Below are positions 38,437 through 41,601 of a stretch of DNA of 64,000 bases, one piece after another. Under the pieces are notes generated by a model. That model searched no databases. It saw only the letters and a program-made list of their open reading frames with translations, and was not told the origin of the DNA. The translations under genes and the position numbers were made by a program. The DNA is taken from positions 768,001 through 832,000 of the forward strand of contig CBDFKD010000002.1 of the NCBI GenBank assembly GCA_965248695.1. The letters are read 5' to 3'. Position 1 is the stretch's first letter. The number at the start of each line of letters is the position of its first letter. The stretch comes from Acidobacteriota bacterium. GTDB taxonomy: Bacteria > Acidobacteriota > UBA890 > WLXD01.

Positions 38437-39666
38437 CTAGACCTGGAGCGTGATCTCGCTGAATCCGTCGATCAGCGGGTTGGGTTTCCGGATCCGATTG
38501 TCAACGAGCTTCTGCACGAACCCGAATCTCGTCACCGCACCCACGGCGGCCATCATCACGTCCAACCATCGTGCGCGACTGAGCAGGAAGAGCGGGACCT
38601 TCCGTTGCATGGCTTGTGTCTTCGTCACTTCCCGTAGGCGTGCAGATTGAAACTGCTTGGCGACGATATCGAGCGCGCTAGGGTCGACACCCTGGAGTAG
38701 CGGCGGGACGAAGTGGTTGGCCACTACTACGGCATCGCGCAAGGCGACGTTGATTCCCTGGGCGCCGACCGGAGACATGGGGTGGGCGGCGTCGCCGAGC
38801 ATCAGCATTCCGGGAGCCGACCAGTGCTCGTAGCAATCGCACACGACGTCGAGAAGAAACGGCTGCGTCGCATTGGTCGCATGGGCGCGCAGATGCTCCG
38901 CCATGTCCGTCGCCACATGGCGGGCGATCTCTTCGATCCATCCCTCTACACCCATTTCGCGAAACGCCCTGTAGCTACCCTTCTTGATCACCCAGCCGAG
39001 CTGCAAGAGACCATCATATGAGGGGATGCAAAGGCCGAAATGGCCGCTACCGAAGTAACCCCGTACGGTAGGCACCTGCCCGTCGCAGAAAGCCGGCATC
39101 GGTAGCTTGCACCACACGACGTCGAACGCCTCCGGCCGACGCGGCTGGTCCAGCCCGGACGCCTGTCGCATGGTGGAGAAGCGGCCGTCGCAAGCAAAGA
39201 TGTAGTCGGCTTCGATACGCTCCGGCCCATCCAAGCCACGTAGTTCGACGCCAACAACCCGGTCGCCGTCGTGTATTGGCCCGGCGACGCTCACGCCGCG
39301 GCGAAACGTGAACTCTGGATGAGCGGCGGCCTGCTCGATGAGCATCTCCAGCATTGCCGGCTGCGAGACGAATCGCGGCGGCAGTCGATCTTCCCAGTTG
39401 AGCCGGAGGCTGAGGAAACGGTGCCCCTTGAAGTGCACCTGTGCCCCGCCTAGCACCGTATGCGGCAGCGACAAGAACTCCTCCCAGAGGCCAGCCTCGT
39501 CGAACATCTTTTGTCCACCCGGTGCCAGTCCTTCGCCGCGGAACTCACGCGCGAAATCCGAGTGGCGTTCCACCAGAGTTACGGGAATACCTCGGCTGGC
39601 GAGGAGATAGGCCAGGAGGGCGCCTGCCGGACCGCCACCGACCACGACTGCGCTGTGTGCGGTCAC
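38437..39666 (-). CDS. FAD-dependent monooxygenase (UbiH/FAD_binding_3 type)
   Basis: GGGPAG, REFRGE, CDGRFS, GDAAHPMSPVGAQGINVALRDA. Confidence 0.92.
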   Translation of the reverse strand: MTAHSAVVVGGGPAGALLAYLLASRGIPVTLVERHSDFAREFRGEGLAPGGQKMFDEAGLWEEFLSLPHTVLGGAQVHFKGHRFLSLRLNWEDRLPPRFVSQPAMLEMLIEQAAAHPEFTFRRGVSVAGPIHDGDRVVGVELRGLDGPERIEADYIFACDGRFSTMRQASGLDQPRRPEAFDVVWCKLPMPAFCDGQVPTVRGYFGSGHFGLCIPSYDGLLQLGWVIKKGSYRAFREMGVEGWIEEIARHVATDMAEHLRAHATNATQPFLLDVVCDCYEHWSAPGMLMLGDAAHPMSPVGAQGINVALRDAVVVANHFVPPLLQGVDPSALDIVAKQFQSARLREVTKTQAMQRKVPLFLLSRARWLDVMMAAVGAVTRFGFVQKLVDNRIRKPNPLIDGFSEITLQV

Positions 39667-39694
39667 CGGGCCCCTGGCGGGAGATTCCGCACCA

Positions 39695-40207
39695 CTACTC
39701 GCCTCGGAAATCGGGATTCGGCATGCTCTTGAAAATCATCTCGCGTGCTGTGAGGCGCAGTTCTTCCGGTGTCGGTCGTCCGACGAAGTACCAGCCGTTG
39801 AAGATCCGGTGGATGGTCAGATCGGGGAGCAGTGCGAAGGTGAAGGGGACGGGCAAGGGACCGTGATAGGTATCGGTTGTCTCACGAATCCCCAGGGCCT
39901 CAGTGAGTTGCAATTCTTGATCGCTCAGGAAGCTGAACTCCGCGCCGAGATCGGCTCTTAGCGCTGCTTGCGTCTCCGGGGGGTCGACCGAAACAGCGGC
40001 GATCCGGCAGTAGGCGACCTCAGCGGCACGTTGGAACTGGACCAGTTCCGACAGCTGTAGCTGTCACTTCGGTCACCAGGGGCCACGATAAAACGCCACG
40101 AACAACGGCAGCCGGCCCGCGAGGTCGGCGATCGAGACTATGTTGCCGGTGTGGTCCGAAAGGTTGTGGTCCGGGAACTTCTGGCCGACGTCGTACTGCA
40201 GAGGCAT
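39695..40207 (-). CDS. AhpC/TSA thioredoxin-fold protein, predicted di-selenoprotein (UxxU; UGA at 40073-40075 and 40064-40066)
   Basis: Manual translation: MPLQYDVGQKFPDHNLSDHTGNIVSIADLAGRLPLFVAFYRGPW-TGA-PK-TGA-QLQL...IAAVSVDP...FSFLSD...VPFTF...GRPTPEEL; 170 aa in a single frame, including the listed ORF 39695-39913. Confidence 0.85.
40033..40049 (-). promoter_or_regulatory. Candidate bacterial SECIS hairpin (UxxU protein)
   Basis: GGAACUG-GUC-CAGUUCC: 7-bp stem starting 14 nt after the second UGA; apical GGUC recalls the E. coli fdhF SECIS loop. Confidence 0.65.
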
Positions 40208-40243
40208 GGAGGATTCTCCCGCGAGCGTGCTGCGATGCCGATT

Positions 40244-41485
40244 CTAGGTGGACAGACCCCTCGCCGCGACAGGCCAGATTTCGTCGACGCGGTCGCCACG
40301 GATGGCGTACAGCTGATCGTAGAGGTTCACCACCGGGTCGCAGTGCGACACGATGAGCTCGAGCTTATCGCCGACGCGATAGGTGCGCGAAGGGTCGTCG
40401 TATCGCAGCACCCCGAACTCGTCGGAGCCCGAGCGGTACTGCATCCCGGACTCTCCCTTCACCATCGGCCAAGGCTGGTTGATGGTGCATGCCTTGGCGC
40501 CCGCGTCGGTGGTGACCTGCCCGTCGTACTGGTCGTTGAGCACCGTCGTGAGAATCGTCAGCGCGGGCTGGAAGTCGGAGTAAACCAGTGGGTCGGAGGT
40601 ACCGCCGATGGCCATGTACTGCGCATCCATGAATACGTAGCTACCCACCTGCACATCGGTGAGCCCGGGCGTCTCGTGGTCGATGTTGTAGGTACCGGTG
40701 CCGCCGCCGCTGAAGATCTCGGTGCTCAGGCCGGAGCTCTCGAAGAGCGTGGCTGTCTCGACCCCTGCCAACAGCCGCTGAAGGGTCTGTGCCCGTCGCG
40801 TGTCGAAGCCCTTCACATGCTGCGAGCCACCGTCGTAGCACAGCAGCCCCCGAAGCTGCAGCCCTGGTAGCCGGTCGATGCGCTGTGCCAGCTCGAGGGC
40901 CGGTTGACCCCCGGTGATGCCGGTGCGATGGGTTCCAGGGTCCACATCGACCACGACATCGGCGACGACGCCAATTGCTTGTGCAGCATCGGAAAGGTCC
41001 TGGGCGTTGTCGGGCGTGTCGGTGGCTTGAATGAAGCTCGAGCATTTCTTCCTCAGGCTCATCGCTCGGTTGATCTTGAACGGCGTCACGTTGCTGGTGG
41101 TCATCAAGATCTGCTCGATGCGGTGCTCGAACATCACCTCGGCCTCGCTCACCTTGGCGGTGCAGATGCCCACCGACCCTGAGTCGAGCTGCCTGCGAGC
41201 GATGGTCGGGCACTTGTGCGTCTTGGCATGCGGGCGGCTGGCGATCCCGTTGCCCGAGACGGCGCGCTGGCAGGTCGCCAGATTGGCCTCCAGCGCTTCC
41301 AGGTCAACGCAGAGCGCCGGCGTGTCCAGCTCCGACTTGGAAACACCGGCTTGATGCATTGACCTGTTGGCGGCCATCGACCGCATTTCCTCAGGTGAGT
41401 ATCCCTTCACGGACGTAGGAACCCATACGCCGGCGGCCCCGGCGGTCTGCAGGAAACGGCGGCGGGACAGCGGCGTGTTGCTCAC
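40244..41485 (-). CDS. Tat-exported DSD1/D-threonine-aldolase-family PLP enzyme
   Basis: SRRRFLQ Tat motif; TPAL, RPHAKTHKC, GGGTGT, GSYVFMD, SDEFG, HCDPVVNLYD. GTG 41485 follows GGAG. Confidence 0.9.
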   Translation of the reverse strand: MSNTPLSRRRFLQTAGAAGVWVPTSVKGYSPEEMRSMAANRSMHQAGVSKSELDTPALCVDLEALEANLATCQRAVSGNGIASRPHAKTHKCPTIARRQLDSGSVGICTAKVSEAEVMFEHRIEQILMTTSNVTPFKINRAMSLRKKCSSFIQATDTPDNAQDLSDAAQAIGVVADVVVDVDPGTHRTGITGGQPALELAQRIDRLPGLQLRGLLCYDGGSQHVKGFDTRRAQTLQRLLAGVETATLFESSGLSTEIFSGGGTGTYNIDHETPGLTDVQVGSYVFMDAQYMAIGGTSDPLVYSDFQPALTILTTVLNDQYDGQVTTDAGAKACTINQPWPMVKGESGMQYRSGSDEFGVLRYDDPSRTYRVGDKLELIVSHCDPVVNLYDQLYAIRGDRVDEIWPVAARGLST

Positions 41486-41601
41486 AGGGTTCTCCGTATT
41501 CGGGGCAGACGAAGCCGAAGCGCGGATAGTAGCGCGGGCGTCCGACCACGACCACGGAGGGTCAGTCCGTGTCACCTGCTCGACACTCACTGCCGCCGCC
41601 G

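Follow-up and report, generated by a model that had tools for sequence, protein, structure and literature searches.

A gene on the minus strand of the 64,000-nucleotide stretch of Acidobacteriota DNA analysed here (the window) appears to encode a functional, cytoplasmic, peroxiredoxin (Prx)-like oxidoreductase of the thioredoxin fold with the active site Sec45-Pro-Lys-Sec48, both in-frame TGA codons being recoded through one SECIS hairpin inside the coding sequence; we put the probability of this reading at about 0.82. In the proposed mechanism, SelB and tRNA-Sec would recode both TGAs to selenocysteine (Sec), and the single hairpin would guide both events, at 14 nt from the second TGA and 23 nt from the first; Sec45 would then attack, Sec48 would resolve, and the Sec pair would cycle between the diselenol and the diselenide, with a selenenylsulfide in U-P-K-C variants. 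The central claim of the original prediction, an AhpC/TSA-fold protein with Sec at both CxxC positions, was supported by the Sec machinery of the genome, by Cys at each of the two sites in homologues, by the dN/dS ratio and by the covarying hairpin, and on this sequence evidence the locus is very probably a genuine two-Sec selenoprotein gene. The features of the locus were as follows.

39695-40207, minus strand: predicted selenoprotein CDS with an AhpC/TSA (Prx-like) fold and the motif W-U-P-K-U; ATG at 40207, TAG at 39697-39695, 170 sense codons.
40073-40075, minus strand: first in-frame TGA, codon 45 (predicted Sec), preceding the helix that starts at residue 46.
40064-40066, minus strand: second in-frame TGA, codon 48 (predicted Sec); TGC in the related genomes G004 and G002, and TGT in L050.
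40033-40049, minus strand: SECIS-type hairpin GGAACU-GGUCC-AGUUCC, 6-7 bp, from folding and covariation.
40216-40220, minus strand: GGGAG Shine-Dalgarno-like motif, read from the sequence; GGAG core at 40219-40216, 8 nt 5' of the ATG.
40244-41590, minus strand: upstream co-oriented gene with Ala_racemase_N and D-ser_dehydrat domains; 36 nt separate it from the selenoprotein start.
38437-39666, minus strand: downstream co-oriented gene, FAD_binding_3 monooxygenase-like, beginning 28 nt past the selenoprotein stop.

The frame described in the original prediction, 170 codons with TGAs at residues 45 and 48 in FYRGPW-TGA-CCG-AAG-TGA, was re-read from the sequence and stood as written; around the motif, the minus strand reads TTT TAT CGT GGC CCC TGG TGA CCG AAG TGA (F-Y-R-G-P-W-U-P-K-U). 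The read-through protein matched the Pfam model AhpC-TSA (PF00578) with 69 bits (cut-off 26) over residues 7-126, and Redoxin with 46.4 bits. The PF00578 match lay on both sides of the TGAs and spanned them, in agreement with the claim that Prx-like sequence continues across the motif. Under translation table 11, the selenoprotein gene yielded ORFs of 44 aa (40073-40207) and 72 aa (39695-39913, with a TTG start), the latter being the fragment that gene callers were predicted to leave.

The genome that contains the window (G000; 5.89 Mb in 2 contigs, 96.4% complete) was found to have selA (521.8 bits), selB (330.4 bits, rising to 354.3 bits when an adjacent match in that reading frame is added), selD (319.1 bits) and tRNA-Sec (70.2 bits; anticodon tca by ARAGORN), so that all of the Sec machinery whose presence was to be checked was there. 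A genome-wide reassignment of TGA was considered and ruled out, because 18 of the 33 long non-overlapping ORFs of the window terminate at TGA, which is their commonest ordinary stop. TGA is also the terminal stop of the selenoprotein gene itself in several orthologues. The selD product is a 792-aa fusion of Pyr_redox_2 (NADH dehydrogenase-like), AIRS and AIRS_C, without an in-frame stop, and it matches the Ndh-SelD fusions in the text of the GOS paper (PMC2398784). Two Prx-like paralogues in G000 had a single TGA each, and their hairpins (loop GGUCG or CGGGC) each begin 14 nt past the TGA; these two genes probably encode single-Sec selenoproteins. The positions of the three loci are given below.

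L011:1390-3768 in G000:C2, minus strand: selD locus, Pyr_redox_2-AIRS-AIRS_C fusion.
G000:C2:2996096-2996416 (L036): single-TGA Prx-like paralogue with the motif W-U-P-Y-C.
G000:C2:3777362-3777685 (L037): single-TGA Prx-like paralogue with the motif W-U-P-Y-C.

The structure of the read-through protein was modelled with AlphaFold2 from an alignment of 25 rows, and the model had a mean pLDDT of 88.5 and a pTM of 0.87. A helix starts at residue 46 in the model, with Sec45 at its N-cap and Sec48 in its first turn. The nearest solved folds were those of the BCP/PrxQ and AhpE groups (Bcp4, AhpE and PrxQ; query TM-scores 0.71-0.83), and the scores for ResA were 0.67-0.70. The best sequence matches among solved structures were to ResA/TlpA/DsbE-like proteins. 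In comparison with these disulfide reductases (PDB 3kcm, 3c71 and 1st9), whose WCxxC was aligned with WCPKC, the present protein had a similar fold (query TM-scores as given for ResA), but the sequence matches were weak (E ~3e-4 to 8e-3), Sec stands in place of Cys, and neither a signal peptide nor a membrane anchor was apparent by eye at the N-terminus. The protein also has the C-terminal helix typical of BCP/PrxQ, unlike ResA/TlpA/DsbE. Residues invariant in both the Sec clade and its 1-Cys relatives included, among others, R41, G42, C/U45, P46, K47, Q51, E109, T111, D112 and the tripeptide G143-R144-P145. Because position 45 holds the only redox residue kept across the family and lies at the helix N-cap, we infer that Sec45 would be the attacking nucleophile and that Sec48 would be a resolving residue acquired by the clade; the pair would then form a diselenol/diselenide couple, replaced by a selenenylsulfide in the U-P-K-C variants.

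The opposite assignment, in which the protein would be a true peroxidase with Sec48 peroxidatic and Sec45 resolving and not a thioredoxin-like disulfide/diselenide exchanger, was rated lower than the exchanger and is unlikely. Position 48 would fall in the register of the peroxidatic position of the peroxiredoxin T-x-x-C/U motif, and the best structural matches, Bcp4, AhpE and PrxQ at query TM-scores of 0.71-0.83, are peroxiredoxins. Position 48 lies three residues after position 45, which is the spacing of T-x-x-C/U in Sec-peroxiredoxins, and the TxxU motif is the one assigned to Sec-peroxiredoxins in the passages of the reviews; in the present protein, however, Sec45 and not Thr stands three residues ahead of position 48, so that no TxxC/TxxU motif is formed. 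The 1-Cys relatives keep the residue at 45 only and have Asp or Glu at 48, which argues that the catalytic residue of the whole family is at position 45. The scores against the curated peroxidase models were both far below cut-off (34.4 against 140 for the thiol peroxidase model PRK09437, and 17.2 against 260 for PrxQ), and in sequence the motif aligned with the WCxxC of ResA/TlpA-like proteins. The exchanger with Sec45 as the putative nucleophile therefore remained the preferred reading of the chemistry.

The 60 relatives that were searched include four other members of the genus, and three of these carry the gene. The gene of G003 was 91% identical to that of G000 and had the same two TGAs; those of G004 (77% identity) and G002 (75%, two copies) had one TGA, with TGC at codon 48. 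No match to the selenoprotein gene was obtained in G001 (92% complete). The two U-P-K-C copies of G002, at C3:8687-9196 and C4:2466-2975, encode the same protein and match in the 66-nt motif region on two contigs; either the gene was duplicated recently or the second copy is a product of the assembly. In a scan of 401 genomes of the phylum, close TGA-bearing copies were present in four members of the genus only, and 14 other genomes had stop-free relatives of 35-41% identity that read C-P-K-[D/E]; the statements on C-P-K-[D/E] include rows from the unpublished G047 and G166 and hold equally without them.

A scan of genome records, with one genome per species, gave 13 loci, one of them G003's own record, and U-P-K-U was found in 11 of the 13, G003 included. 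The other 12 loci (62-69% identity), which comprised ten W-U-P-K-U, one U-P-K-C (L050, with TGT) and one S-P-K-U (L048), were from MAGs labelled Latescibacterota, Binatia, Acidimicrobiales, SAR324, Spirochaetales, Pseudomonadota and others; frame-intact, full-length orthologues of 62-72% identity were present in MAGs labelled Latescibacterota, Binatia, Acidimicrobiales, SAR324 and others. The S-P-K-U locus, L048:1-471, has Ser (TCA) at 45, TGA at 48 and a two-residue deletion, has lost the invariant Arg of the GRP sequence along with other invariant residues and is truncated by the contig start; either the copy is decaying or the contig is of poor quality. The metagenome scan, in which contig redundancy was kept, gave 32 loci, and both TGAs were present in all 25 of the close loci (61-74% identity) that contained the motif, 24 as U-P-K-U and one as U-G-K-U. 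This last locus, L078:730-795, reads W-U-G-K-U, with GGG for CCN, and has the sole non-Pro residue at position 46 among the 25. The remaining metagenome loci consisted of four that stop short of the motif and three distant ones (~43% identity), one a 1-Cys sequence with F-C-P-R-D and two that align poorly at the motif and have three in-frame stops each.

The close proteins in a set of 5.8 billion were all fragments of 99-122 aa that represent the C-terminal 55-71% of the protein, and one 44-aa head piece, ending at W44, was found in the databases. The nearest full-length database proteins (39-50% identity) were all 1-Cys proteins with C-P-K/R-[D/E], and their source names were only 'peroxiredoxin' or 'redoxin domain-containing protein'. 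Position 45 was Cys in 14 of 14 1-Cys relatives; Cys at position 48 occurred in three genomes only, as TGC in G004 and G002 and as TGT in L050, and Trp was found at position 45 or 48 in none of the sequences examined. Both TGA sites align with Cys in homologues, as would be expected of a selenoprotein gene. The CPK[D/E] relatives named in the original prediction proved to be real, both in the 14 genomes of the phylum and among the nearest full-length database proteins.

A maximum-likelihood tree was built from 30 rows, of which 16 belong to the Sec clade and 14 to the C-P-K-[D/E] outgroup; L027, the metagenome loci, and L034 and L038, which are duplicates, were omitted. In this tree the Sec clade was separated from the outgroup with a support of 100/100. 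U-P-K-U was found on every deep branch of the Sec clade, and U-P-K-C occurred twice, each time nested in a starred clade, with G004 and G002 as the sister of G000 and G003, and L050 as the sister of L041. Because U-P-K-U occupies the deep branches and U-P-K-C is nested, parsimony suggests that Sec48 is ancestral to the clade and that Cys48 arose secondarily, at least twice. On this tree, whose root is placed on a long outgroup branch, U-P-K-U would most parsimoniously be the ancestral, and is the prevailing, state of the multi-phylum clade, and Cys48 in the sister species would be a secondary replacement or reversion. The suggestion that the second Sec was a lineage-specific gain was thus reversed; a gain of Sec48 would hold only at the base of the multi-phylum clade, when this is compared with the C-P-K-[D/E] relatives.

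To the 3' side of the second TGA, the genes of G000 and G003 differed over 122 codons (49-170) by 15 synonymous and 4 non-synonymous changes without indels, which gave a dS of 0.187, a dN of 0.015 and a dN/dS of 0.078. The low ratio and the lack of indels between these two genes indicate that the region 3' of the second TGA is translated. The motif was also compared between sequencing runs, on contigs and not on reads. Contigs of runs X1 and X3, from one sample, were identical to the window over 39797-40300, and a relative of ~90% identity in X5 and X7, from two other studies, had no listed difference over 39996-40095, 26 further differences being unlisted. Whether TGC or TGT would be found in place of the TGAs had been put forward as a check, and both TGAs were kept in the X1 and X3 contigs and in the independent assemblies. 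On the evidence of these contigs and of the assemblies, which come from several phyla, chance and error are excluded as the origin of the two TGAs. Short contigs of 41 nt with high depth (46.5 in X1 and 15 in X3) matched the window at 40041-40081 only, and other contigs with 7-10 mismatches also matched just this stretch, which contains TGA-CCG-AAG-TGA and the hairpin. These contigs suggest that several other organisms of the same samples carry the conserved 40041-40081 segment.

The hairpin GGAACU-GGUCC-AGUUCC, the GGUC-capped structure of the original prediction, was found at 40049-40033; 14 nt lie between the second TGA and its start, and 23 nt between the first TGA and its start. The folding energy of the 74-nt stretch from the Trp44 codon was -32.8 kcal/mol (z = -3.3 against shuffles). 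In an alignment of 41 sequences (35 distinct), the six pairs were formed in 99.5% of cells, and compensatory changes were found at three of the six pairs: G-C to A-U, A-U to G-C via G-U, and C-G to U-A in 7 sequences. None of 500 shuffles reached the observed pairing or covariation score, controls in which the register was slid had at most 55% of cells paired, and a smaller sequence set gave the same result for pairing and covariation. The only unpaired cell belonged to the TAA-bearing pair L082 and L083. The loop residues G37 and U38 (alignment columns 37-38) were invariant in the 41 sequences, and the hairpin was never shifted by an indel. The conservation of the hairpin is partly a coding constraint, on S-E-L-V-Q-F; yet in the C-G to U-A change, both of the coupled bases are third codon positions and both substitutions are synonymous (CTG/TTG with CAG/CAA).

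According to the bacterial SECIS model as given in a review passage (PMC13188914), the loop has 3-9 nt with G in the initial two nucleotides, the stem has 4-16 bp, the distance from the UGA to the loop is 16-37 nt and the free energy is -7.5 kcal/mol or lower. The present hairpin agreed with this model, with a stem of 6-7 bp, a loop of GGUCC or GUC (3-5 nt, starting with G-G/U) and a free energy of -7.6 kcal/mol; the distance from the TGA to the loop was 29 nt for the first codon and 20 nt for the second, so that both lay inside the range. A search of Rfam over 39600-40300, with E up to 10, gave no match, for the hairpin or elsewhere in that interval. In six of eight single-Sec relatives with W-U-P-[YF]-C, including both G000 paralogues, a hairpin was found 14 nt after the UGA, two of the six sharing the genus. 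In the protein alignment, the hairpin of the two-Sec proteins comes three codons later than that of the single-Sec relatives, a shift equal to the distance between the two Sec residues, and the usual 14-nt register therefore falls on the second TGA. Because 23 nt to the first TGA exceeds the 14 nt of the single-Sec relatives, the efficiency of recoding may differ between the two codons. Judged from the U-P-K-C orthologues, this hairpin suffices for the first TGA from a distance of 23 nt, and a single hairpin for both codons would be the simplest reading.

Two other structures were considered and rejected. A 3-bp helix after the second TGA (columns 16-18 with 25-27) was considered as a separate SECIS; it was paired in 98% of cells with one double change, in Gln/Leu codons, and was too weak. 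A stem of 7 bp in which the second TGA takes part was specific to G000 and absent from other members.

That only the first TGA encodes Sec, the second being passed by near-cognate read-through (Trp or Cys) or acting as a leaky or regulated terminator with a rare full-length product containing one Sec, is improbable. In the U-P-K-C orthologues the 23-nt hairpin serves the first TGA alone, and decoding twice at a distance of three codons would call for another SelB complex on this one hairpin, which for this family is a supposition; both points agree with one Sec. Against this, with respect to the second TGA the hairpin stands at the usual 14-nt register of the single-Sec relatives, this TGA is kept in 25 of the 25 close metagenome loci that cover the motif and in 11 of 13 genome loci with Cys as the sole replacement, and selection after the second TGA is strong (dN/dS 0.078). 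Recoding of both TGAs through the one hairpin was therefore preferred. The wider proposal, that one bacterial SECIS recodes two UGAs 9 nt apart and that Sec-Sec is the ancestral, clade-defining centre of a multi-phylum family that no curated model names, has in our estimation an even chance of being right. If it is, SelB would have to load again onto this hairpin in the course of three elongation steps, and the spacing of bacterial SECIS elements would be more elastic than is suggested by the 11-nt rule of E. coli, whose minimal SECIS works 11 nt from the UGA according to a review passage.

A pseudogene, or TGAs produced by assembly error, has next to no likelihood: two stops do lie within four codons and the public protein sets contain fragments only (99-122 aa, and one of 44 aa), but identical TGAs were found in other assemblies and runs, dN/dS after the second TGA was 0.078, and neither a frameshift nor a non-TGA stop occurred in any of the 16 Sec-clade sequences of the tree. 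L039 was without the first two codons only, in its match. In L082:730-795 and L083:730-795, two of the 25 close metagenome loci, a change from GAA to TAA at codon 54 creates an in-frame stop within the hairpin and disrupts one of its pairs; these two are probably decaying copies.

The protein was compared with known selenoprotein families. A 'Prx-like thiol:disulfide oxidoreductase' of PF00578, with UxxC/UxxU and 1-2 Sec, is listed as 'predicted with high confidence' in the passages of two reviews (PMC9312934 and PMC13188914), and Prx-like UxxC families appear in the text of the Sargasso Sea and GOS surveys, including 'Prx-like 1' (pfam00578, UxxC) of the GOS study (PMC2398784). The present protein resembles the PF00578 class of the reviews in that it scores above the PF00578 cut-off, is small and stand-alone, and has Sec at the first position of the U-x-x-C/U motif and not in TxxU; the likeness is one of Pfam match and of the motif as described in those passages. 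Distinct from the class as the reviews describe it, the present clade has W-U-P-K-U nearly always, the tail G-W-Y-F-V-G-R-P, and 1-Cys C-P-K/R-[D/E] proteins as its nearest full-length relatives. The UxxU form of the PF00578 Prx-like proteins is thus already catalogued in these review passages and current knowledge is not overturned; the rarity of UxxU had been overstated in the original prediction.

The comparison with SelL that had been proposed did not bear out membership. In SelL, one SECIS reportedly serves two nearby Sec codons (Shchedrina et al. 2007). The protein shares a Prx-like fold and UxxU with SelL, with the SelL-related NCBIfam model NF040769 and with 'Prx-like 2' of the GOS study, but it scored 30.8 bits against NF040769, the cut-off being 120, and membership was ruled out by this score; the 1-Cys relatives scored 24-29 bits. 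No true member of NF040769 was found in G000, and no NCBIfam model reached its cut-off with the protein. The GOS Prx-like 2 family, which is SelP-N-like and includes several UxxU sequences, is described in the text of that study as only weakly similar to pfam04592 and as lacking strong homologues among sequenced genomes (PMC2398784); the present protein differs in its clear match to PF00578. Among the matches listed in a search of the running text of the literature, no description of the exact motif or of the clade was found.

The analysis adds that U-P-K-U appears to be ancestral and near-universal in a widespread clade that is systematically mis-called, that Cys48 of the sister species would be a reversion, and that a single covarying hairpin is located at the usual register for the second UGA. 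Because the close homologues in databases are fragmentary and no NCBIfam cut-off was reached, a multi-phylum selenoprotein clade is absent from proteomes and is not counted in selenoproteomes. As a small natural system, the gene lends itself to studying how SelB and SECIS handle two UGAs three codons apart and where the limits of UGA-hairpin spacing lie, which bears on the engineering of multi-Sec proteins. Within a Prx-like fold, the redox potential of Sec-Sec should be much lower than that of Cys-Cys, and the natural U-P-K-C revertants would be ready comparators for Sec-Sec chemistry.

In the comparison of neighbouring genes, the upstream Ala_racemase_N/D-ser_dehydrat neighbour was kept within the genus only, and the downstream FAD_binding_3 neighbour was kept in G003 only. 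Among the neighbour ORFs of 14 loci, nothing was common across phyla except the gene itself and its antisense shadows; since no neighbour gene was conserved across phyla, no functional partner or substrate could be inferred from them. The N-terminal sequence of the upstream D-serine-dehydratase-like protein (40244-41590, minus strand), R-R-R-F-L-Q-T-A-G-A-A-G, resembles by eye a twin-arginine export signal.
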